This document shows, one piece after another, positions 88 to 20,077 of a stretch of DNA of 20,104 nucleotides. The translations under genes were made by a program, and so were the position numbers. The notes beneath the pieces are model-generated. The model had not been told where the DNA came from, made no database searches, and saw only the letters and a list, made by a program, of their open reading frames with translations. The DNA is from Myxococcales bacterium (lineage in GTDB: Bacteria; Myxococcota_A; UBA9042; JABWCM01; BTVJ01): NCBI GenBank assembly GCA_045863395.1, contig BTVJ01000117.1:1-20104 (forward strand), written 5' to 3'. Position 1 is the stretch's first letter. Every line of letters begins with the position of its first letter.

Positions 88-126
88 ATAAACGACGAGA
101 GGCCGAACCTTGCGGTCCGGCCTCTC
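88..126 (-). terminator. Probable intrinsic terminator of the minus-strand ncRNA unit
   Basis: Minus strand 126..97 reads GAGAGGCCGGACC-GCAA-GGTTCGGCCTCTC: a 13-bp stem with one G.U pair (it would be an A.C mismatch on the plus strand) and a GNRA loop. It is followed by GTCGTTTAT, a weak U tract. Confidence 0.6.
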
Positions 127-128
127 AA

Positions 129-1072
129 CGAGATTGATTGGTGATGGCGACGACGGGCCCCGTGGCCTGCCCCTCTTCAAAGCGTCTACGAACATGAAGT
201 CGAGCCAGCGCAATGCGCTGCTCCTCCTCTCCTGCAGTTCATCCGTCCTTCGATGTGTCTGGCTCGCCTGTCGTAGCGCCTCGGTGGCTTTGGCGCTCCC
301 TCTCGGTCCCTTCGCGCGAGGCGTCGGGCTTCGAGGTATTCCTTCAGGCGGCTCGGGCTAACCAACGGCGAATTGGAAGCCCGTCCATCCATGGACTTGG
401 ACCCTGCTTCAGAGTATCACCTCACGTCGCTGCACAGAACCACTCGACCGTGATCGAGCGATGCTCGCGGGAGCGTCCTGCGCGCGCTCTCCTGAGGTTG
501 GCGTTTGCGCCCCTTCAGCGCCTTTACAACATTGCCGAGCCACGTGCGCTTCGTCTCCGCCGCTCCCCCGAAGGGTCTCGACCAAGTTCGTCGCGCCAGC
601 CAGCCAGCTCCCATCCTCTCGGAGGGCAGCTCGCAGACTCTCCCGAGCTTGCCAGTCTCGGGCTTCGATGCGTCCACAGGTTTTCTCAACCTCTCGACGC
701 CTTGCTCCCAGCAGTGCCGCCCCGGCCTTGTCTCATGCCGGTTTCGCTCTTGGGGTTCGCTGTCCTTCAGAGGGTTTCCCTCCAACGCCGCCGACGAGGT
801 CGCACCTTGCGATGCGTCTTCTCCTCTCGGAGTCGCCTGCCCCTCCTGGCGTTGGCCGTGCCATTTGCCTGCGATTGCGACAAGCGCTATCGCCGACGGG
901 CGCCGGCTGCCTTCAGGGGTGTGAGCGTGCGTGGAGTCCGTTCCGCGCCGAGGCGTGGTTTAGGTGCCTGGCTTGGTCGATCCTCTCTTGGACTTTCTGG
1001 GGTCGTCCTTATCTCGGTTCTCAAAGAGCTTCGAGTGTCGGACGGGGCAACGAGGTTGCCGCCGTGCCATCT
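129..1072 (-). ncRNA. Candidate large (~0.9 kb) highly structured non-coding RNA, class not recognised
   Basis: No credible CDS. Ends pair: CGAGAT 1016-1011 with ATCTCG 134-129, and GACGAC 1007-1002 with GTCGTC 154-149. Seven non-crossing helices are each interrupted by a GAA/ARG-type 3x3 loop. GNRA/UUCG hairpins occur on the minus strand (832-821 GAGA, 816-801 GCAA, 575-566 UUCG). It has its own promoter and terminator. Boundaries are approximate. Confidence 0.75.
1018..1060 (-). promoter_or_regulatory. rrn-like boxB hairpin plus boxA-like antitermination element
   Basis: Minus strand: hairpin GGCAAC-CTC-GTTGCC (1060-1046), then GCTCTTTGAGAA (1029-1018), resembling E. coli rrn boxA TGCTCTTTAACA. 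Confidence 0.55.
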
Positions 1073-1079
1073 GCTGTGC

Positions 1080-1108
1080 ACTGTAGGCCAGACTGCCGGG
1101 TCCGTAAA
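1080..1108 (-). promoter_or_regulatory. Sigma70-type promoter driving the candidate ncRNA
   Basis: -35 TTTACG (1108-1103), 17-nt spacer, -10 TACAGT (1085-1080), with an AT-rich tract upstream (~1126-1150). Same geometry as four other promoter-like sites in the window. Confidence 0.6.
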
Positions 1109-1183
1109 CCCTTGGCGCGTCGACGAAGTGAAAAGCTATTTAGATTCAACGAGTTGATCCCGTGACACCAGGCGCGCACAGTT

Positions 1184-1390
1184 TCGTCCACACCCTGTCC
1201 ACAGGATCAAGCTCGCTGAAATTGCAGCGGTTCCACCCCGCCTGATCGCGGCCCACCAGCAACCACGCGGATTTGCGATTCTCCACACCTGTGGACAACC
1301 GCCGCGTGGATGAAATTGCGCCGATTCTTGCTGGATTCAGGAGGCAATCCACGGAAACAAGAGAATCAACGAGGCGGAGAATCGTTCACA
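1184..1390. promoter_or_regulatory. Cluster of DnaA-box-like 9-mers
   Basis: TCGTCCACA 1184-1192, CTGTCCACA 1195-1203, TTCTCCACA 1279-1287, TTGTCCACA (minus) 1290-1298, TCATCCACG (minus) 1305-1313, CAATCCACG 1345-1353 and TCGTTCACA 1382-1390, compared with consensus TT[A/G]TCCACA. The region is intergenic and lower in GC. Confidence 0.55.
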
Positions 1391-1434
1391 GGACCATCTC
1401 TGTGATCACGGTGAAATCCAGGAAAATCCGACGA

Positions 1435-2766
1435 TCACCGCCTGTCGCTTGACATGCTGAGGGGATCGACGGACAGCGCCTCCAGGAGGTCCATCGCGGC
1501 CAGGTCACGCTGGAGCCGTGCGCGAACGAGCTCCGTCTCCGCTGTGAACAGGGCGACGTCTGCGTCGCTCACCTCCAGCGAGGTCGCCTCCCCCAGGTCG
1601 GCCCGCGCGTGGACGAGCCCGTACTGCTCGAGAGCCACGTCACGCTGGCGCTCCGCCGTGGCGACCGTCGCGATTGCGGCCTTCAGATCCAGCGCCAGCC
1701 GCCGCACGTCGCGGGCGAGCGCTTTCTCTGCGCGGTCCAGCGCCAGGGCGCCGATGCGCTGCTCTGCGGCGGTCTCTTCGATGTCCGCGTAGCGCGCTCC
1801 GCCATCGTAGACGAGCCACTCGGCGACGAGGCGGATGTCCCAGCTATCGGTGTCGCCAGCGATGCCCGCGCTCTCGGATGCCTGGTAGTTGAAGACGACG
1901 CTCAGCTTGGGGAGCATGGACCACCAGGCGCCGTCCGCCAGGTGCTCGCTTGCAAGGAGGCGAGCCCGGGCGGCCACCAGCTCGGGGCGCTGGGCCGCGG
2001 CCTCTGCGATGGTCGCATCGGCCGGCACGACGACGGTCCGCGACGGTGCCTCCACGCGGACCGCCGTGTCCGCGTCCGTCAGGAAGCGCAGCAGCTCGAG
2101 GAGGGTGTCGCGCACGTTCTCCGCGGCGAGCAGGTCCCGCTGGGCCTGGAGCAGCACCAGCTCCGCGCGGCTCACATCGATGGGGATGCCCACCTCCCCG
2201 TCCAGCCGGACTCGCGCGGTCTCCAGGGACACCGTGGCCTTGTCGACGTTGCGCCGCACCACGGCGACCAGCATGTCCGCAGCAGCGGAAGACCAGTAGG
2301 TGCGGGCGGTCTCCCACAGAATGGCGCGCCTCACGGCCTCCGCATCGGAGCGGGCTGCCCGCAGCGCCTCGTAGCTCGCCTGGATGCTCTTGATCGCCCG
2401 CGCATCGACGAGCTGCATGGACGCGGACATCGTCGCGGTGAGGTCGTCCTGGCGCGTGATGATCCGCCCCCCGAAGGCGACCTCCTGGTCGCGGTGGACG
2501 TACTGCCCTTGCAGGCGGAGATTGGGCTTGAAGGAGGCCCAGGCGCGGTCCCGCCGCGCCGCCGCCTGGGTGGCACGCTCCGTGGCGGTCGCGATGTCCT
2601 GGTTGGCCCGTGCGGCCCGGGACAGGGCGTCATCGAGCCGCAAGAGGGTGGCTTCGGCGGACGTCGCCAGCAGCGCCTGTGGCACCGCGTCGGGCTGAGC
2701 ACTCGCCGAGGGAGCAGCGAGCGCCACCGCCCACAGGATGAGCTTGGAGAGAGGACGTGCGTTCAT
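1435..2766 (-). CDS. TolC-family outer membrane efflux protein
   Basis: 443 aa with a signal peptide. Two OEP-like halves show the typical patterns LDDALSRAARAN...FKPNLRLQGQY and AAAQRPEL...LPKLSVVFNY...W.VYDGG...GEATSLEVSDA. Confidence 0.9.
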   Translation of the reverse strand: MNARPLSKLILWAVALAAPSASAQPDAVPQALLATSAEATLLRLDDALSRAARANQDIATATERATQAAARRDRAWASFKPNLRLQGQYVHRDQEVAFGGRIITRQDDLTATMSASMQLVDARAIKSIQASYEALRAARSDAEAVRRAILWETARTYWSSAAADMLVAVVRRNVDKATVSLETARVRLDGEVGIPIDVSRAELVLLQAQRDLLAAENVRDTLLELLRFLTDADTAVRVEAPSRTVVVPADATIAEAAAQRPELVAARARLLASEHLADGAWWSMLPKLSVVFNYQASESAGIAGDTDSWDIRLVAEWLVYDGGARYADIEETAAEQRIGALALDRAEKALARDVRRLALDLKAAIATVATAERQRDVALEQYGLVHARADLGEATSLEVSDADVALFTAETELVRARLQRDLAAMDLLEALSVDPLSMSSDRR

Positions 2767-2859
2767 GGATGAGCTCCGGAAGGGGGGACGACGGGCTCAG
2801 CGCCGGACGAGCGCAGCCGCCGCACGAGTCCGGGGGCCGTCGCGAGGCGCAGGCCCGGC

Positions 2860-5469
2860 TCACTCGAACTTGAGGGAGTCCACCAGGATGGCCGTGTCGT
2901 AGATGCTGTCTCCGGCGTCCGTCGTGAAGAACTTGAGGGTGATGGGGCCCGCACCCGCGAAGGTGGACACGTTGGCCGTCGCCTGCTGCCACTGGGTGCT
3001 GTGGACGTCGCCCTGATCAAAGGACAGGTCGCTCGGCGTGAGGGGTACCGCCTTGGCTCCGCACCCTGCGCATTGGTTCGCGGGGCACAGGTCGTCGACC
3101 CGGACGTCCACGGTGGACAAGGTCCCCTGCTCTCCCTGGATGGACGCCTGGAACGTGTCCTGGTACTCGGAGCCGCACCACTCCAGGAACTCCTCCGAAT
3201 AGAACTTCCAGTAGAAGCTGAGCTGGGTCTTGCCCGACGGGATGCAGAACGTCTGTCTCAGCTCGCCGGTCTGGACGGTATAACCCATGCCGGTAGAGAT
3301 GATGCCCATGAACTTGCCGAGCACGGGCAGCGCGGCACCGAACTGGGAGATGACCCGCCCGTCCCCTTGGATGTCCCAGCCGATGGAGTTCCCCTTCTCG
3401 AAGTCGGCGTTGATGATGTCGGACTCGTTGATCGACAGGTTGGAGGCCCCGAACAGCCGGAAGAACGAGCCCTCGTGGTCCGGGTCCTGCTTGGACACGG
3501 CTGCCGCGCCCGCCGGGAGCTCCAGCTCCAGCATGTTGTTGAAGAAGTCGAGGCCCCGCTCCTTGGCGAACGTACTCGTGACCACGCCGGAGAAGCCCGC
3601 GATGGCCTTGGCGCCCGCGCCATAGAGCTCGCGGGCCAGCGTGCCGTTCCAGAGGGAGCTGCACGCCCCCAGGTAGACGAGGCTGTCGGGGAAGGGCTTG
3701 TTGTTCGCGTGGTGCGAGAAGAAGGACGGGAGCACGCCCCACTTGCCGCGGCCGTTGATCGCGACGCGCCCCATCTTGGCGTCCACCTGGGTGTTGTCCA
3801 GGCAGTAGCCGCTGGCGCTCGTCCCCTGGGCGTTGGTGAAGATGCACTCCGCGTTGCCGCCGCACTTGTTGTTGGCGTTGTCGCACGCCTGGACCGCCTG
3901 CATGAGCTTGGCGCACTCCACGGGCTCGCCGGTCCAGAGCACCTCCTGGTTGCCGGAGTGGTCCCACCGATAGCGGGCCTTGGCGTCGGCCGACAGCCCC
4001 CCGAACAGGGCGTCACCATGGGTCGCGATGGCGGCGATGCCCTTCTGGTGCAGGGTCCGGAAGGCTGCGAGGTCCGCGTGGACGTCCGTGCGCTCGTCCA
4101 CCGCGAACTTGGGGCAGCTCTTGCTGCGCAGCGATGACGCGATCTCGGGCGTCTCGTCCACCCCTTGGAGCTCCTGCGCGAAGGGGGAGAGCACCGCCAC
4201 GGAGCGGCTCTGGATGGGGACGCCGCCCAGCGCCGCGGACGGGACCGTCGTATAGCCCGGAGCGCCGCCGCCGCGGGTCCCGGGGGCGCTGCCGTCCACC
4301 GCCGCGAGGACCCCCGAACCGAAGGCAGCCCACACCCCGTTGCCGATGGGGCTCTTGCCCGAGGAGACCACCGACGGGTTCGCCTGGAGGGACGCCAGGG
4401 CCGCGTCCTGGGCGACCGCGGCGCCTTGCGCCCACGCTCCGTCGAAGGCGGCCTGGGCGGCCTGCGCGGCGCCGAGGACGGCCTGGCACTCCTGACCGGT
4501 GAAGTGCTGGAGCGCGTCGACGGTGATCACGTCCGACCAGGCGTTGAAGCCGGCCCCCCCGTCCGCCGGGATCACCTTGACCCGCACGCGGAACCAGAGC
4601 GTCTCGGGCGTCGGGTGCGTCACGGACAAGCGCACCGAGAACACGCCGTCCCCCGGGACCTCGTCGCCGGAGGTCGCGAAAGCGCCATTGTCGTGCATCT
4701 TCCAGACGGCCACCTGGTTGCCGGACGCGTCCACCTGGATCAGCTCCGCCGTGCTCGGGTCGAAGTTCGGGTAGAGGCTGATCGGGATCGTGAAGAACAG
4801 CTCGGTCTTCTCACCCACCCAGATGGAGGGCGGGCGCGCCACAGGGGGGCCATCGAAGTCGAACTGGGGGTTGTAGGTGATGCGGACGTGGTCGGTGACG
4901 GTGCTGCCGTCCGCGCCATGGGCAGTCACGGTGATCTCGTTGTCGCCCACGGTCAGGTTCAGCGGCGGGGAGCCCCAGAACGGGGAGCCGGCGCCCTCGA
5001 CGGTCTGGCCGCAGGAGCAGACGACCGAGATGGACGAGGCGTTGCCGAACACCAGGCCGTTGATGCTGACCACCGCGTTCTGGATGGCCACCGAGTCGGC
5101 GCTCGACGGGCCAATGATCTTCACGCCCAGCTCGGCCGCGGGGAACTCCTTGCCTCCGACGCCGGGAGTGGAGCTGGCGTCGCCCGTGGGGAGCGTCCCA
5201 CCGTCCGTGGAGCCCCCGCCGGTGCCTGCATCGGCCCCGCCTGTGCCGCCGCCCGTCCCGTCGCCGCCCGTGCTGCCGCCGTCGTGGGTGGGGCCGCCGC
5301 CGAAGCCGGGTCCCATGGAGCCATCCTGCTCCGTGGCGCCCGTCCCGTCGCCCCCGCTCCCGCCGCCTGAGCCTTCGTCGGCTCCCGGGTCATCGCACCC
5401 GCCGAGCAACACCCCGAGCGCACCGGCGAGCACCACCGCTCGCCATGACCACATCACGCGCAACTTCAT
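2860..5469 (-). CDS. Large multidomain lipoprotein: Gly/Thr linker, Ig-like domains, caspase/CHAT-like (clan CD) domain, C-terminal beta-sandwich resembling choice-of-anchor L
   Basis: 869 aa with lipobox LLGGC. Motifs: HDNG...GDEVPGDGVFS (choice-of-anchor X-like), IATHG and VYLGACSS followed by LARELYGAGAKAIAGF, and FYSEEFLEWCGSEYQDTF...DAGDSIYDTAILVD. Domain names assigned by eye. Confidence 0.75.
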   Translation of the reverse strand: MKLRVMWSWRAVVLAGALGVLLGGCDDPGADEGSGGGSGGDGTGATEQDGSMGPGFGGGPTHDGGSTGGDGTGGGTGGADAGTGGGSTDGGTLPTGDASSTPGVGGKEFPAAELGVKIIGPSSADSVAIQNAVVSINGLVFGNASSISVVCSCGQTVEGAGSPFWGSPPLNLTVGDNEITVTAHGADGSTVTDHVRITYNPQFDFDGPPVARPPSIWVGEKTELFFTIPISLYPNFDPSTAELIQVDASGNQVAVWKMHDNGAFATSGDEVPGDGVFSVRLSVTHPTPETLWFRVRVKVIPADGGAGFNAWSDVITVDALQHFTGQECQAVLGAAQAAQAAFDGAWAQGAAVAQDAALASLQANPSVVSSGKSPIGNGVWAAFGSGVLAAVDGSAPGTRGGGAPGYTTVPSAALGGVPIQSRSVAVLSPFAQELQGVDETPEIASSLRSKSCPKFAVDERTDVHADLAAFRTLHQKGIAAIATHGDALFGGLSADAKARYRWDHSGNQEVLWTGEPVECAKLMQAVQACDNANNKCGGNAECIFTNAQGTSASGYCLDNTQVDAKMGRVAINGRGKWGVLPSFFSHHANNKPFPDSLVYLGACSSLWNGTLARELYGAGAKAIAGFSGVVTSTFAKERGLDFFNNMLELELPAGAAAVSKQDPDHEGSFFRLFGASNLSINESDIINADFEKGNSIGWDIQGDGRVISQFGAALPVLGKFMGIISTGMGYTVQTGELRQTFCIPSGKTQLSFYWKFYSEEFLEWCGSEYQDTFQASIQGEQGTLSTVDVRVDDLCPANQCAGCGAKAVPLTPSDLSFDQGDVHSTQWQQATANVSTFAGAGPITLKFFTTDAGDSIYDTAILVDSLKFE

Positions 5470-9181: not shown

Positions 9182-9299
9182 GGGGGTCAAGTATACTCAA
9201 TTCTCATATCCCGCGACGCCCTGCCCACGCGCGCGGGCAGGGGGGGGTCAAGTATACTCAATTCTCATATCTCGCGACGCCCTGATCACGCGCGCGGGC
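9181..9299 (+). repeat. Two tandem copies (61-bp period) of the left REP-like end
   Basis: GGGGGGTCAAGTATACTCAATTCTCATATCYCGCGACGCCCTG..CACGCGCGCGGGC at 9181-9238 and 9242-9299, with 3 mismatches between copies. Confidence 0.95.
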
Positions 9300-10343
9300 T
9301 ACGCTGCGCATCAGGCCAGCTAGCGAGAAGCCATGCGGGCCCGCCAGGCGTCCTTCCATTCAATCGCCTCGGCGCTCAGCCCGACCTTCGCCGCACGATG
9401 GCAGATGTTGGCCACCTGGCGCGGCGACATGTCGAGGGCCTCGGCCACGTCCCGGTAACGGAGGCGCGGACACTGCGCCAGTGCCCAAGCGGCGAAGCGA
9501 CGGCAGGGATTGGCTCGAGCCCCGCGCACGGTTGAGCGGAGCTCCGCCACGGTGGCCCCCGTGATGTCCGCCACGGTTGCGAGCAGCTCTTCCGTCGAAG
9601 CGTCACCCGCGGACGCCTGGCGCTGGGGCTCCTCGGCCCGCTCCCGGTCACCGCGCAGCCGCCACCCGGTGTCCAGCTCCAGATCCGGGGGCCACTGTGC
9701 CCGCCCGTTCCAGAAGTGGCCGACGAGGTCGTGGAGCTTCTTTCCGCCACCGGCCAGCGAGCGTATGGCAGCCGTAGTCAGAAACGGCGGTGGCGTCTCG
9801 AGGCCGACGAGCGCACGGTGGCTGGTCCAACAGTCCGCGTCGGGGCGCGTCGCCAGGTGAGCCCGCAGCGGGTTGAGGTGGATGTATGCGACCAGCGTGA
9901 TGAGATACGCCTCATCTTCTACGAGCTGGCTCCGGAACCGCCCACGAAACAGGGGCCCGTCCCAGGAGCACACCCGGTTGAGCCGCTGCGTGTAGGTGCC
10001 GTTGAGGTGCCGCATCGCGCGCGAGAGGTTGCCATGCACCGACCGCACCAGGAGGTGGTAGTGGTTGGGCATCAGCGCGTAGGCGTGGACCTCGATCCCG
10101 TGCTGCCGGACCGTGTCCTCGAGGGTCTCGAGGAGCAGCGTACAGTGGGAGCCTTCCGTGAAGATGGGCGCACGCCGCGCGCCCCTGTGCATCACATGGT
10201 GCCATGCTCCCGGATAGTCGATGCGTGGTTGTCGTGCCATGTCGCGGGAGCATGCAGCAGACCGCGCCAATTGAAAAGTGAGAATTGAGTAGGCTTGACC
10301 CCCTCAGCTTGAAAAAAGTGAGAATTGAGTAGGCTTGACCCCC
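9183..10343. mobile_element. RAYT-REP locus: transposase gene bracketed by 2+2 inverted REP-like repeats, between convergent fhs and parC
   Basis: Left copies GGGGTCAAGTATACTCAATTCTCA and right copies (reverse complement) GGGGTCAAGCCTACTCAATTCTCA enclose an HUH-Y1 transposase gene. Confidence 0.85.
9320..10240 (-). CDS. REP-associated tyrosine transposase (RAYT, IS200/IS605-superfamily HUH Y1) with C-terminal DnaA-domain-IV/TrpR-like HTH
   Basis: MARQPR...WHHVMHRG, LMPNHYHLL (HUH), GPLFRGRFRS, YIHLNP (catalytic Tyr), WTSH. C-terminal LLATVADITGATVAELRS...RYRDVAEALDMS. ATG 10240 is preferred, giving 306 aa. Confidence 0.92.
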   Translation of the reverse strand: MARQPRIDYPGAWHHVMHRGARRAPIFTEGSHCTLLLETLEDTVRQHGIEVHAYALMPNHYHLLVRSVHGNLSRAMRHLNGTYTQRLNRVCSWDGPLFRGRFRSQLVEDEAYLITLVAYIHLNPLRAHLATRPDADCWTSHRALVGLETPPPFLTTAAIRSLAGGGKKLHDLVGHFWNGRAQWPPDLELDTGWRLRGDRERAEEPQRQASAGDASTEELLATVADITGATVAELRSTVRGARANPCRRFAAWALAQCPRLRYRDVAEALDMSPRQVANICHRAAKVGLSAEAIEWKDAWRARMASR

Positions 10344-10345
10344 TC
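10274..10345 (-). repeat. Two tandem copies (40-bp period) of the right REP-like end
   Basis: AAAAGTGAGAATTGAGTAGGCTTGACCCCCTC is identical at 10274-10305 and 10314-10345, and inverted relative to the 9181/9242 copies. Confidence 0.95.
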
Positions 10346-12853
10346 CTCCGGGGGGCGTTCCCGATGCTCCGCTCCCCCGTTGGAGCCACCGGAGGTGCTC
10401 GGGCCCGCCTCGGTCACGGGCTCCAGCTCGGGGAGGACCGCGACGAGCCGCTGCTTCACCTCCAGCAGCGTGAAGGCGTTGCCGTCGCGAGTGGTCGTGC
10501 GCAGGAGGGCCAGGTCGAGGGGGTGGCGCGAGCCGTCCGCAAGGACGGCCACCGCGGGCGGCGGCTCCACGCCGAGGCACAGCACCTCCACGATTCGGTG
10601 CGGGTTCTTGAGGAGCCGCTTGAGGCTGCGGATGCCCTTCCCCGCCCGGAGCTGCGGGTTGTACTCGGCCAGGGGGGTGGCCTTCGCCTTGCCCTCCGTC
10701 GTGATGACTGCCACGCGACGGCTCGCTTCTCCTTCAGGCGACACGACGAGCAGGGCCGTCGCTACCCTGTCACCCCGGTCGAGGCCGATGCCCCGGACAC
10801 CCTGCGCGGCCCGCCCCTGCACGGCGATGTCGTCGGCAGCGAAGCGGATGGCCTGCCCCAGGGTCGTCACGATGAGCAGATGCTCGGCCCCGCCCGTGCG
10901 AAGCACCCTCGCCACGCCGTCGCCCGTGCGGAGCCCCATGGCGATGATGCCGCTCGACCGGGCCGCGTCCAGGTCGCCGAGCGCCACGCGCTTCACCATG
11001 CCCTGCTCGGTGACGAAGACGAGCGACTCCTCGCCGCCGAAGTCGTCGACGGCGTGCATCGCGACCACCGCGTCGTCTTTGCCGAAGGGCACCACGTTGA
11101 CCAGCGCCGTGCCCGCGTCGCCCCACTTGTGGTCGGGGAGCTGGTGCACGGGGATGGTGAAGCAGGTCCCTCCGCGGGTGAGCACGAGCACCTTGTGGGT
11201 CGTGTTGGTGCGGGCCGCCCACCGCGTGTAGTCCCCCTCGCGAGCCCCCGCGTCGCGAAGGGTCTCACCGCTCGCCCGGAAGGACGCCATGGACGACCGG
11301 CGGATGTAGCCGCCCGCGGTGACGCCGACCACGACCTCTACGGGCTTGACCACCGCCTCCAGCGTGACCTCCAGGGTCCGAACCTGGGCGTGGATCTCGG
11401 TGCGCCGGTCATTCCCAAATGTCGCGGCGACGGCGCGGAGCTCCCTCTCAACCACCGCCCGCAGCTTCCGCTCGTCCGCCAGGATGGCCTCCAGGCGCGC
11501 TATCTCTTTGGAAAGCGCGGCCTCCTCCTCCCGGAGCTGGAGGATCTGGAGCCCGGTGAGCCGGTGCAGACGCAGGTCCAGGATGGCGTCGGCCTGGGCC
11601 TCGCTGAAGCCGAAGCCCTCGACGAGGTTGTCCCGGGCGTCGGCGCGGTTGTCCGAGCCGCGGATGGTCGCGATGATCTCGTCGAGGATGTCCACGGCCC
11701 GGATCAGGCCCTCGACGATGTGGATTCGCTCGCGCGCCTTGGCCAGATCATGCTCGCTGCGGCGTCGGACGACGAGCACCCGGTGGTCCAGGTAGGCGAG
11801 CAGCAGGTCGCGGAGGCCCATCTGCCGAGGCGTTGCCTCGTGGATGGCCACCATGTTGAAGTTGTAGTTGATCTTGAGCTCGGTCTTCTTGAGGAAGACG
11901 GCGAGTACACCCTCGGGATCCACCGCCTTGGAGAGCTCGATGACGATGCGCATGCCCTCGCGGTCCGACTCGTCGCGCACGTCGAGCACGCCCTGGACCG
12001 TCTTGTCCGTGCGCAGGGCGTCCATGTCCGCGACCAGCCTGGACTTGACCACCCCATAGGGGATCTCGGTGATCACGACGAGCTGCTTGCCGTCCCGCTG
12101 CTTCTCGACGACCCAGCGGGACTCGAGCACCACCTTGCCGCGGCCGGTCTCGTAGGCCTCGCGGAGGCCCTCGGCGCCCATGAGCACGCCACCGGTCGGG
12201 AAGTCCGGGCCCTTGACGTGCTGCATCAGGTCGCTCACCCCGAGGGACGGATCCCGCAGCAGGGCGACCGCGGCGTCCGTGACCTCCCGCAGGTTGTGGG
12301 GCGGGATGTCCGTCGCGAAGCCCGTCGAGACCCCCGCCGCCCCGTTGACCAGGAGGTTCGGGAAGCCGCACGGCAGGACGACCGGCTCCAGCTCCTTCTC
12401 ATCGAAGTTGGGGCGCCACTCGACGGTGTCTTTCTCCAGATCCCGGACCAGCTCCATGGCCACGCCCGCCAGGCGCGCCTCCGTGTACCGCATGGCGGCG
12501 GCCGGATCGTCGTCGATGGAGCCGAAGTTGCCGTGGCCGTCCACCAGCGGGTGCCGCATCTTCCACGGTTGGGCCAGGCGCACCAGGGCCTCGTAGATGC
12601 TCTGGTCCCCGTGCGGGTGGTAGTTGCCCATCACGTCGCCGACGGTCTTGGCGCACTTGCGGTAGGGTTTGTCCGGCGTGTTGCCCGCGTCCGCCATGGC
12701 GTAGACGATGCGTCGCTGGACCGGCTTCAGCCCGTCGCGGGCGTCCGGGATCGCCCGGTCCAGGATGATGGTCTGGGCGTAGCGGCCGTAGCTCTCGCCC
12801 AGCTCCGTCTCCAGGCGGACGTCGCGCACCCGCGGGCCCCGCTCCTCGGTCAT
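10304..12853 (-). CDS. parC: DNA topoisomerase IV subunit A
   Basis: [32 protein letters not shown] (catalytic Tyr) and a beta-pinwheel CTD. There is no canonical GyrA box in the first blade ([13 protein letters not shown]). The N-terminus ([14 protein letters not shown]) is ParC-like. Confidence 0.85.
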
Positions 12854-14847
12854 TGCGCAGCCTCCTCGACCACTCCGGGAGTCGTGTCACGGTCCAGCTC
12901 GAAGTCCTCGTCGAAGCCCGGCTCGTCGACCGCCTCGGGCGCCTCGTCGCGGTCCACCCCAAACCGGACGTTGCGCGCCAGCCACTTGCGCCGGAGGTCC
13001 GCGTCCTCGCCCATCAGCACGCGGAGCTGGTGCTCCGACGCGGCGCCGTCCTCGATGCTGACCTGGAGCAGGGTGCGGGTCTCCGGGTTCATGGTCGTCT
13101 CCCAGAGCTGCTCTGCGTTCATCTCGCCGAGGCCCTTGTAGCGTTGCACCGTACAGCCGGTCCCGCCCACCTCGATGGCGGCCTGCATCTCTTCCTTGGA
13201 CCAGCAGTAGGTCGAGGTCTCTGCCCGCCCACGCCGCTTGGGCGCGTCGACCTTGAACAGCGGCGGCTGGGCGATGAAGATGCGCCCCGCGGCGAGCATC
13301 GGCTTCATGTAGCGGTAGAAGAAGGTGAGCAGCAGGCACCGGATGTGCGCGCCGTCGTCGTCGGCGTCGGCGAGGACGATGACGCGCCCGTAGTTGGACT
13401 CCTTGATGTCGAAGTCCTTGCCGACGCCCGCCCCGACTGACTGGATGATGCTCAGGATCTCTTTGTTCTTCAGGATCTTGTCGAGGGCCGCCCGCTCGGT
13501 GTTCAGGGGCTTGCCGCGCAGTGGCAGGATGGCCTGGATGCGCCGATCCCTGCCCTGCTTGGCCGAGCCTCCGGCCGAGTCCCCCTCGACGATGAACAGC
13601 TCGCACTCCTCGGGCTTGCGGCTCGCGCAGCGCGTGAGCTTGCCGCCGAGCGAGGTGTGTGACGTCGCCGTCTTGCCCGTGCGCGTGAGGTCCCGCGCCT
13701 TGCGCGCCGCGTCCCGGGCGTTGCGCGCGAGCCCCGCCTTGTCGATGAGCTTGCGGGCGACGTCCGGGTTCTCTTCGAGGAAGCGGTCCAGGTGCTTGGC
13801 GACCACCGCGTCGACCGCCGCCCGCGCCTCGGGGTTGCCGAGCTTCGTCTTGGTCTGCCCCTCGAACTGGGTCTCGGTCATGCGCAGCGACAGGACCGCG
13901 GTCATGCCCTCGCGCAGGTCCTCGCCCGCCAGGTTCTCCTTCTTCTTCCACAGGCCCATGCGGCGCGCGTACTCGTTGGTCACCCGCGTGTGCGCCGTGC
14001 GAAAGCCCGTCTCGTGGTGGCCGCCCTCGGTCGTGCAGATGCAGTTGACGAAGCTGACCAGGCTCTCCGCGTAGCCGTCGTTGTACTGGAGGGCGACGCT
14101 CACCTCGATGCCGTCCGCGGTGTCCGTGAACACGACGGGATCGTGCACCGGCTGGGAGCCCTCGTTCAGGTACTCCACGAAGGCGCCCGCCCCGCCGGGG
14201 TACACGAAGACCTCCTCCCGGCGCTCGGCGCGGCGGTCCGTCAGCTTGATCTGGAGGCCCGGGTTGAGGAAGGCCATCTCCCGAAAGCGGTCGGCCAGCG
14301 TGCGGAAGTTGAGCTCCGTCGTCTCGAAGATGGACGCGTCCGGCTGGAACCGCACCGTGGTGCCCGTGCGGCGCGCCGTCCCCCGCTCCTCCATGGGGAC
14401 GGCGATGTGGCCGCCGCGCTCGAAGCGCCCATAGACCAGCTTGCCGTCGCGGGCGATCTCGTACTCGAAGGCGCTGGACAGCGCGTTCACCACCGAGGCG
14501 CCGACCCCGTGGAGGCCCCCCGAGACCTTGTACGACTCGTTGTCGAACTTGCCGCCCGCGTGGAGCTTCGTGAAGATCAGCTCCGGCACCGGGATGCCCG
14601 CCGTCGGGTGGAGCCCGATGGGGATGCCGCGCCCGTCATCCCGCACCAGCACCCACCCGCCCTGCTCGAGCACGACGTCGATGCGGGTGCAGTGCCCCGC
14701 GAGCGCCTCGTCGACCGCGTTGTCCACCACCTCGTAGACCAGGTGGTGGAGGCCCCGCGGCCCGGTGGAGCCGATGTACATGCCGGGCCGCTTGCGCACG
14801 GCCTCCAGCCCTTCGAGCACCTTGATGTCGCGCTCGGTGTAGCTCAC
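12850..14847 (-). CDS. parE: DNA topoisomerase IV subunit B
   Basis: [17 protein letters not shown] ATPase motifs ([24 protein letters not shown]), [21 protein letters not shown] and [11 protein letters not shown] start with GGAGG RBS. ATGA overlap with parC. Confidence 0.85.
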
Positions 14848-19282: not shown

Positions 19283-20077
19283 ATGCAGCAGCACGAGATC
19301 ACCGGAGCCCCAGCCGCCTCGGCCCTCGCGGGGGCAAGGTCTCAGCAGGTCTTTCTGGCGCTCGCGGCCACGCTGATCACCTCCCTGGTGCTGGCAAACG
19401 TGGTCGGCGTCAAGCTGTTCCGTTTCGAGCTGGACCTGGGACCGGTTGGGGTCGTGCCCGTCGAGCACACGGCTGGCATGCTGCCATTCCCCATCACCTT
19501 CCTGCTCACGGACCTCCTCAACGAGTATTGGGGCAAGCGAGCCACCCGCTACGTGACGTTCGTTGCGTTCGCCATGGCCGCGTTCGCGTGGGGAGTCGTG
19601 ACTGCTGCCCGCGCGCTGCCAATCCTCGAAGGGATCCCCGGCACGGCGACCCAGGCTGCCTTCGACGAGATCTTCGGGGCGTCGTCGCTGATGCAGATCG
19701 CCTCCATCGGCGCCTTCCTCGTCGGGTCGCTGCTCGACATCCACGTGTTCGGGGTCTTCAAGCGCTTGACCGGGGGACGCATGGTGTGGCTCAGAACCAC
19801 GGGCAGCACGGTGATCTCCCAGCTCTTCGACAGCTTCGTGGTCACCTTCCTCTTCTTCGTCGCCCTCCAAGCCGCGACCGGTGGGGAGGCGGCTCCCTTG
19901 GACTTCGTCGTTCGCACGGCGCTGACCGGCTACGTCCTGAAGTTCGTCATCGCGGTGGCGCTCACGCCGGCCGTGTATGCCGGCAGGGCCCTCCTGCGGC
20001 GAGTCTGGGGGCTTGAGCCCGAGCCCGGCCCCGTGGGGGTCAAGTATACTCATATCTCATATCCGCGAGAGAAGTGA
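19283..20077 (+). CDS. Queuosine precursor transporter (YhhQ/VUT family)
   Basis: Multi-TM protein with LANVVGVKL, PFPITFLLTDLLNEYWG, AFLVGSLLDI, WLRTTGSTVISQLFDSF and YVLKF...LTP..Y. The stop codon lies inside the REPIN. Confidence 0.9.
   Translation: MQQHEITGAPAASALAGARSQQVFLALAATLITSLVLANVVGVKLFRFELDLGPVGVVPVEHTAGMLPFPITFLLTDLLNEYWGKRATRYVTFVAFAMAAFAWGVVTAARALPILEGIPGTATQAAFDEIFGASSLMQIASIGAFLVGSLLDIHVFGVFKRLTGGRMVWLRTTGSTVISQLFDSFVVTFLFFVALQAATGGEAAPLDFVVRTALTGYVLKFVIAVALTPAVYAGRALLRRVWGLEPEPGPVGVKYTHISYPREK

Follow-up and report, generated by a model that had tools for sequence, protein, structure and literature searches.

Introduction

To our knowledge, few classes of large noncoding RNA are known from bacteria. 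The OLE RNA, which is linked to oapA, is a large, structured and stand-alone RNA that is encoded on the chromosome. GOLLD (RF02032) and ROOL are large ornate RNAs that form RNA-only nanocages, and according to the excerpts of PMC12286853 they are encoded in phages and prophages, often near tRNA genes. Here we describe an RNA gene in a 20,104-nucleotide stretch of DNA from a Myxococcales bacterium (assembly GCA_045863395.1, contig BTVJ01000117.1, positions 1 to 20,104), hereafter called the window. Positions 1072 to 142 of its minus strand are a noncoding RNA gene whose product, of approximately 930 nucleotides, is large, structured and built from repeats of a single module.

The RNA of the window is similar to the OLE RNA in being chromosomal, large, structured and stand-alone, but it has no Rfam match, occurs in different phyla and has no conserved partner gene beside it. 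With GOLLD and ROOL it shares the size class (a core of 0.55-1 kb), an elaborate covarying structure, the absence of an open reading frame (ORF), a linker of variable length and, probably, an architecture of A-minor contacts. It differs from these two in having no Rfam match, in its absence from the viral, phage and plasmid collections searched, in the lack of tRNA genes beside it, and in the repetition of a single motif, which is not described for GOLLD or ROOL in the excerpts of PMC12286853. The Rfam 15 models gave no gathering-level match in the window. When they were applied to positions 1-1450, to 17 loci and to 20 further loci, the hits were scattered and weak, and none was to a large RNA family; these hits (BjrC68, anti-hemB, GcvB and leaders) were rejected, as most of them fall within terminator hairpins or flanking DNA and they vary from locus to locus. 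A search of 107 genomes of the class for GOLLD gave no matches, and its controls likewise gave none. Because the window and the 37 further loci have no Rfam 15 match, and because there is no association with phages or tRNA genes, the RNA is not a member of GOLLD or ROOL; it may work like the large ornate RNAs. It is also unlike group I and group II introns and the known ribozymes in that it has no Rfam match and its copies are intergenic, with unrelated flanks and no interrupted host gene.

The repeated module

The original prediction, made from the letters of the window, described seven copies of a module in which two helices flank a 3x3 internal loop made of a GAA and an ARG strand. The coordinates and the pairing are correct for all 14 strands, and the proposal of one structural module repeated within one RNA is supported, and covariation across species now adds to this support. 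In the non-redundant homologues (103-167 rows), pairing reaches 97-100% in every one of the seven modules, compared to 27-66% when the strands are slid by one or two positions. The RNA and its modules are listed below.

142 to 1072, minus strand: large structured noncoding RNA of approximately 930 nucleotides, from RNA-library contigs, pairing of both ends and homologues
762 to 993, minus strand: module 1, 993-982 with 773-762, loop AAG/GAA; 98% paired in 109 homologues (slid, 40-60%)
840 to 919, minus strand: module 2, 919-909 with 850-840, loop AGG/GAA; 97% paired in 109 homologues (slid, 33-62%)
510 to 755, minus strand: module 3, 755-745 with 520-510, loop AAG/GAA; 98% paired in 167 homologues (slid, 42-50%); recovered unaided by RNAalifold
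670 to 700, minus strand: module 4, 700-688 with 682-670, loop GAG/GUG; 99% paired in 167 homologues (slid, 28-37%)
172 to 497, minus strand: module 5, 497-485 with 184-172, loop AGG/GAA; 100% paired in 103 rows, approximately one third of them gapped at the 3' strand (slid, 56-66%)
227 to 414, minus strand: module 6, 414-404 with 237-227, loop AGG/GAA; 97% paired in 103 homologues (slid, 27-50%)
245 to 396, minus strand: module 7, 396-386 with 255-245, loop AUG/GAA; 97% paired in 103 homologues (slid, 35-45%)
299 to 336, minus strand: eighth module, from the window fold; 96% paired in 103 homologues

The GAA/ARG loop holds strictly in five of the seven modules, while module 4 has GAG/GUG and module 7 has AUG/GAA, and the rule for the family is RNR/RNR. 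The AA dinucleotide that had been noted near the ARG-type strand is present in all seven, directly or one base 5' of it. Module 4 is a variant with a 5-bp outer helix and a UGAGA-AA loop as its cap; its internal loop has AA in 90 of 167 rows and GG in 75 of 167, and the cap reads UGAGAAA in 142 of 166. The eighth module (336-299), which was absent from the original list, has a larger loop and is degenerate in the window, and it is a regular 3x3 module in most homologues.

A first descriptor (4 bp, ANG/GAA, 3 bp) was derived from this sequence and is therefore circular for the window itself. It found 5 nested modules in 1072-142, versus a mean of 0.41 and a maximum of 2 in dinucleotide shuffles, none of 500 reaching 5, and it found no modules on the antisense strand of the same region. 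Genome-wide, this was the only one of 37,168 overlapping 931-nt segments with 5 modules, and the only other segment listed was that of a paralogue on contig C20.

Folding of the single sequence was also analyzed. All 61 module pairs are present in the unconstrained minimum free energy (MFE) structure of 1072-139, and the folding of the region has a z of -3.5; however, the base-pair probability was only 0.27-0.39 for six modules, with approximately 1.0 for module 4. The local hairpin at 782-770, named in the original prediction as a possible competitor, is indeed favored thermodynamically, with a probability of 0.58-0.67, but it shows no two-sided change in 27 sequences. It was rejected on this ground; in homologues the adjoining purine strand covaries with an upstream strand. 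With these two ranges of probability, folding of the single sequence is indecisive, and it is covariation that settles the long-range pairing of the modules.

Covariation among homologues

The alignment was built from 217 hits, which gave 182 distinct elements, of which 181 were aligned and 167 were below 90% core identity. Many rows had been gathered with a pattern on module 4, so that the inner helix of this module is biased while its two loop purines are unaffected. In a set of 27 cores, RNAalifold recovered modules 3 and 4 unaided; 89.4% of the cells pair, compared to 36-46% in slid controls, and two-sided changes occur in 30 of the 38 pairs. Two-sided changes are numerous throughout the modules, even between strands that are hundreds of bases apart. 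The family has three modules beyond the seven, namely the eighth and two in a 5' domain.

The module has the consensus 5'-AA-NNNC-[R N R]-RNNG-3' on one strand and 5'-CNNY-[R N R]-GNNN-3' on the strand that pairs with it. The first loop base faces its like, as A·A or G·G, in 934 of 1009 ungapped cells, and the third does so, as G·G or A·A, in 960 of 1016, whereas all 16 combinations are seen at the middle position. Across 10 modules, parsimony on a rough core tree counted 87 switches from A·A to G·G or back; each of the 14 changes in module 4 strikes both columns together. A further set consisted of 738 modules with two intact pairs on each side, module 4 being excluded. Here the two loop ends beside the canonical pairs are A·A or G·G in 702 and 715 of the 738 modules, A is found at -6 in 94% and at -5 in 96%, the fourth pair of the inner helix is a G-C in 97-100% of cases, depending on the module, and the outer helix ends at 4 bp, with a fifth pair in 0-15%. 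In the same register, module 4 has neither the AA nor the G-C at inner pair 4. A descriptor refined in this way found a median of 9 modules (range 5-13) in 44 full-length RNAs, compared to 0.07 on the antisense strand. On 19 loci outside its derivation it found 2-12 modules in 16 and none in the other three, which are only partly spanned; the antisense strand gave none in all 19.

The ANG strands resemble the repeated unpaired GGA words that are displayed by CsrB-like sponges, since A(N)GGA is present in 206 of the 738 strands and in 4 of the 7 strands of the window. That the RNA is such a sponge is scarcely credible, because, unlike CsrB and RsmZ, most of its strands lack the word, and where the word occurs it is half buried in covarying helices. 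In addition, csrA was not found in the genome of the organism, which is 97% complete, by a search that matched 3 of 14 controls.

Interpretation of the module

We give about an even chance to the most likely interpretation, namely that the modules are bends clamped by A-minor contacts, through which the RNA would fold into a scaffold independently of protein. In this mechanism the outer positions of the loop would pair like with like (A·A or G·G), most simply as trans Watson-Crick pairs, the bases at the middle would remain unread, and the loop would bend the helix sharply. The AA that lies four pairs from the loop on one arm would then dock by A-minor contacts at the invariant G-C that lies four pairs from it on the opposite arm, either within one module or between neighboring modules. 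Eight to ten such clamped joints would make a rigid, protein-independent scaffold with the variable insertions hanging outside, and the scaffold might oligomerize as GOLLD and ROOL do, which is possible by analogy with them.

Several observations argue for this mechanism. The frequent exchange between A·A and G·G suggests that the loop has a role in shape and that its bases are not read. An A-minor clamp across a bend would require just such a placement of the AA and the invariant G-C, on opposite arms and each at four pairs from the loop. In the excerpts of bioRxiv 10.1101/098723, an A:A or G:G trans Watson-Crick pair beside a canonical pair results in a sharp turn of the backbone, and covariation of A:A with G:G is confined to places where the faces of the bases are free of specific contacts. 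The modules resemble this sharp-turn motif, of which HIV RRE stem IIB is an example in those excerpts, in the like-with-like purine apposition flanked by Watson-Crick pairs and in the A·A to G·G exchange. They differ from it in that two appositions flank a free N/N step, in that the exchange is frequent here and rare in the excerpts, in the fixed AA and G-C, and in the repetition of approximately 9 times.

An internal loop proposed to bend the helix, with A-minor contacts across the bend, is also what the modules would have in common with the kink-turn and the J5/5a hinge of P4-P6. In a kink-turn, tandem G·A/A·G pairs come after a bulge of 3 nt, whereas the loop of the modules is a symmetric 3x3 without such a bulge or tandem G·A register: sliding by one position in either direction drops the pairing to 27-66%, and A·G or G·A is rare at the loop ends.

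Other observations weigh against the clamped bend. The losses of the AA and of the G-C are uncoupled within modules (68 modules lack only the AA, 10 only the G-C and 1 both), so that the clamp has no direct support from covariation, and the A·A/G·G exchange does not fix the geometry of the pair. No pseudoknot or kissing-loop covariation stood out among the top 110 pairs, corrected by average product (APC), in 64 stitched sequences, unlike in the cage-forming RNAs. None was seen either in 44 four-domain sequences that include the 5' domain; in both analyses invariant loops cannot covary and variable loops are poorly aligned. Thermodynamics alone, finally, gives the six modules the probabilities of 0.27-0.39 reported above.

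The original prediction had inferred a motif for tertiary docking, for example of GNRA loops. The repeated structural module on which it was based stands, and docking by the AA of the modules is plausible; the A·A/G·G exchange speaks against loop bases that act as a sequence-read GNRA receptor. Taken together with the free middle position, this exchange argues against a sequence-read site for GNRA loops or protein and for a joint that determines shape. That the modules receive the GNRA tetraloops of the RNA itself, within or between molecules, is consistent with the 4 GNRA-capped hairpins in the fold of the window, with the conservation of GAAA-type and GUGA-type caps in the family, and with the invariant G-C as a usual target of A-minor contacts. 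We nevertheless consider it improbable, because interchangeable loop ends with a free middle are unlike sequence-specific receptors, the GNRA loops are fewer than the modules, and each module already has an AA of its own.

Two hairpins are conserved in addition to the modules.

722 to 741, minus strand: hairpin with a UGA(A/G)A loop, T-loop-like; all five pairs 100% paired and with two-sided changes in 27 sequences; from these and the loop profile
275 to 297, minus strand: hairpin with a loop that takes a variant form in the window and is AACCAAU-like in homologues; from the alignment and the loop profile

These loops allow for the interpretation that the modules merely position a functional core, in which two T-loop-like loops and the AACCAAU loop would bind tRNA, the ribosome or a ligand, or which would be a ribozyme. 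The UGAGAAA cap (142 of 166) and a AUGAAACAAG-type loop are conserved in the core, and in the excerpts of PMC12990946 the double T-loops of the T-box stack on the tRNA elbow. However, no tRNA gene was found in the loci of 56 genomic copies, and no Rfam ribozyme or riboswitch matched even at E values of 5-10, and we consider a functional core of this kind unlikely. It is compatible with the clamped-joint scaffold and does not exclude it.

Ends and signals of the RNA gene

The gene is intergenic, downstream of an outer-membrane efflux gene. The features at its two ends are the following.

143 to 1071, minus strand: terminal helix that closes the RNA, 1071-1066 with 148-143, extending inward, from the MFE structure
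1080 to 1108, minus strand: sigma70-like promoter read from the sequence, with -35 TTTACG (1108-1103), 17 nt, -10 TACAGT (1085-1080) and a predicted +1 at approximately 1072
96 to 127, minus strand: intrinsic-terminator-like hairpin of 14 pairs, from a terminator scan
1019 to 1029, minus strand: boxA-like word GCUCUUUGAGA near the 5' end, read from the sequence

In each of six RNA-library runs, a fraction of 0.80-0.83 of the words of 60-1150 was present. The contigs from four runs of four studies span 142-1072, 167-1055, 147-1046 and 160-1046, and in one run there are loose, adapter-like contig ends at 1072 and 142. These contigs, which carry neither strand nor level, hint that the ends of the RNA are at 1072 and 142. 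Positions 1-120 and 1081-3600 were uncovered in four runs, which is not evidence since the runs were chosen by their match to this stretch. The minus strand is the likely one, judging from the promoter-like site, the terminator-like hairpin and the asymmetry of the modules. The sigma70-like site matches 8 of 12 consensus positions and is below the threshold of the promoter scan, which did not call it, and the terminator-like sites in 1-1500 numbered 2 against 1.5 expected in shuffles. By eye, similar promoter-like sites were seen upstream of several homologues, terminator-like hairpins after many, and end-to-end pairing that resembles the terminal helix of the window in homologues as well.

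In the 5' domain of the family, the commonest form of the boxA-like word is GTTCTTTGAAA (23 of 65 rows); the GCUCUUUGAGA of the window is a possible counterpart of it. That such a word (GTTCTTTGAAA or a close variant) is common close to the 5' end suggests, by comparison with rRNA operons, antitermination of a long untranslated transcript. At the other end, the ACCA at 139-142, which follows the terminal helix, resembles the acceptor end of a tRNA. A tRNA-like role for it was rejected, as it is present in the window but by eye not conserved in homologues.

Distribution and genomic context

The RNA belongs to a widespread and strongly covarying family that is found in several phyla. A BLAST-type search detected a paralogue in the same genome; of 40 relatives, 11 gave matches, one of these with a single match too short to pursue. 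The paralogue (contig C20 near 49,900; L002, L048) is diverged and keeps the 5' domain with its two extra modules, all of which the copy in the window lacks. A 23-letter pattern matched 22 loci in named genomes, mostly metagenome-assembled genomes (MAGs) of Myxococcota but also Enhygromyxa salina, a Planctomycetota MAG, an Ozemobacteraceae MAG and a MAG labelled Acidobacteria, and it matched at least 120 loci on metagenome contigs. With a model of the core (cut-off E<=0.001 in the class genomes, where a few matches are weak), the RNA was found in 55 of the 107 class genomes and in 34 of 151 genomes of the phylum, with up to 6 copies per genome, in 22 of 151 around the Planctomycetota genome, in 30 of 61 around the Ozemobacteraceae genome and in 3 of 121 in a third phylum; the centre genome is part of each count.

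Among metagenome loci in which a 5' domain was detected, 50 of 52 start no more than 249 nt from it, and 29 of 30 loci finish no more than 42 nt from the 3' domain; we infer that these loci end as assembled transcripts would. The span from domain to domain ranges from approximately 0.55 kb, where the 5' domain was undetected, to 3.0 kb, the longest resulting from insertion after the 5' strand of module 5. Insertions of approximately 1.2-2.2 kb between this strand and module 6 were seen in L042 (G033:C3) and L041 (G012:C4), giving RNAs of up to approximately 3 kb, and that of L042 is rich in UUCG-capped hairpins. At the short end, the copy in the cultured carrier Enhygromyxa salina SWB005 appears to be approximately 0.6 kb, and two short forms (L035, from Enhygromyxa salina, and L039) with an apparent start approximately 100 nt before the core and without modules 1 and 2 and the 5' domain are candidates for the minimal form of the RNA. 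Tandem copies approximately 0.8-1.1 kb apart occur in L065, L089, L106 and L112 and on G063:C114 and C217, some of them on one 2-kb contig.

The number of copies, the tandem arrangement and the patchy distribution would fit a mobile element, a cis-regulatory leader or a protein-coding repeat, all of which we consider very unlikely. A mobile element is opposed by the absence of transposase and reverse transcriptase among the Pfam hits of the 89 ORFs that flank 56 copies, by the varying orientation of the copies relative to their neighbor genes, and by the lack of any match in viral contigs (2 patterns) or in phages and plasmids. A coding repeat is opposed by the Pfam scan of the four ORFs overlapping the RNA, which gave no match, by anchor spacings that are spread over the three remainders modulo 3 (70/50/47), and by sense frames, of which just 8-22 of 167 cores have open ones. 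The overlapping ORFs were rejected as coding: antisense frames are open in 64-104 of the 167 cores, yet no frame is kept.

The copies are intergenic, the neighbor genes are unrelated between loci, and the 89 flanking ORFs of the 56 copies have no common family beyond close kin. The last result bears on the interpretation that each module is a protein site. Here the homopurine pairs would widen the major groove, as in HIV RRE stem IIB, and the RNA would be a multivalent scaffold or sponge for approximately 9 copies of one basic protein. In the excerpts of bioRxiv 10.1101/098723, RRE-IIB has a backbone-only pocket for a peptide, built on a trans Watson-Crick G:G (or selected A:A) pair. The repetition and the variable number of modules (5-13) fit a titrating role. 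We consider a protein site, the main rival of the clamped bend, rather doubtful, as there is no conserved neighbor gene, TROVE/Ro60 was found in only 1 of 107 genomes of the class, and the fixed spacing from the AA to the G-C would be simpler as a contact between RNA and RNA, as in the clamped joint.

Upstream of the promoter, at 1180-1300 of the window, are DnaA-box-like words (TGTGGA(T/C/A)AA, TTTTCCACA and similar), and such words are likewise found upstream of homologues. They occurred at least once in 14 of the 50 stretches upstream and in 1 of the 43 downstream, with a genome rate of 0.002 per 440 nt; the pattern for this count was picked after the words had been seen. These words could couple expression to DnaA, or they could mark DNA that resembles an origin. 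Elsewhere in the window, positions 9320-10270 of the minus strand contain an IS200-like Y1 transposase ORF, and 10304-14847 of the minus strand contain neighboring genes for type II topoisomerase A and B subunits, as judged from their translations. Frames ending near 9285 and 20077 (9250-9285 and 20040-20077) encode a similar short peptide, which suggests a shared DNA repeat or element end.

Discussion

No paper that describes this RNA or its motif was found in the open full-text literature, a search outside which subscription papers and RNAcentral lie. The RNA appears to be undescribed, and its motif appears unmatched to any catalogued one. In summary, we tentatively propose, at somewhat less than an even chance, that it represents an undescribed class of bacterial RNA, abundant and of kilobase scale, that spans several phyla and has the construction of a repeat protein. 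In this class one uncatalogued three-dimensional joint, a double homopurine loop with an AA clamp, would be reused 5-13 times, and the RNA would fold and probably self-assemble into a protein-free particle with expansion segments of up to approximately 2 kb.

The proposal is testable because the RNA is large, occurs in several phyla and has at least one cultured carrier, Enhygromyxa salina SWB005. With it, the existence of cage-like or scaffold RNAs outside phages could also be tested directly. If true, it would describe a natural RNA that repeats one tertiary motif approximately 9 times in hundreds of natural variants, and the motif would be a new element for motif catalogues and a part for RNA design. 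The RNA of the window repeats one joint seven or eight times, and this joint may represent a new means by which RNA folds into large scaffolds.
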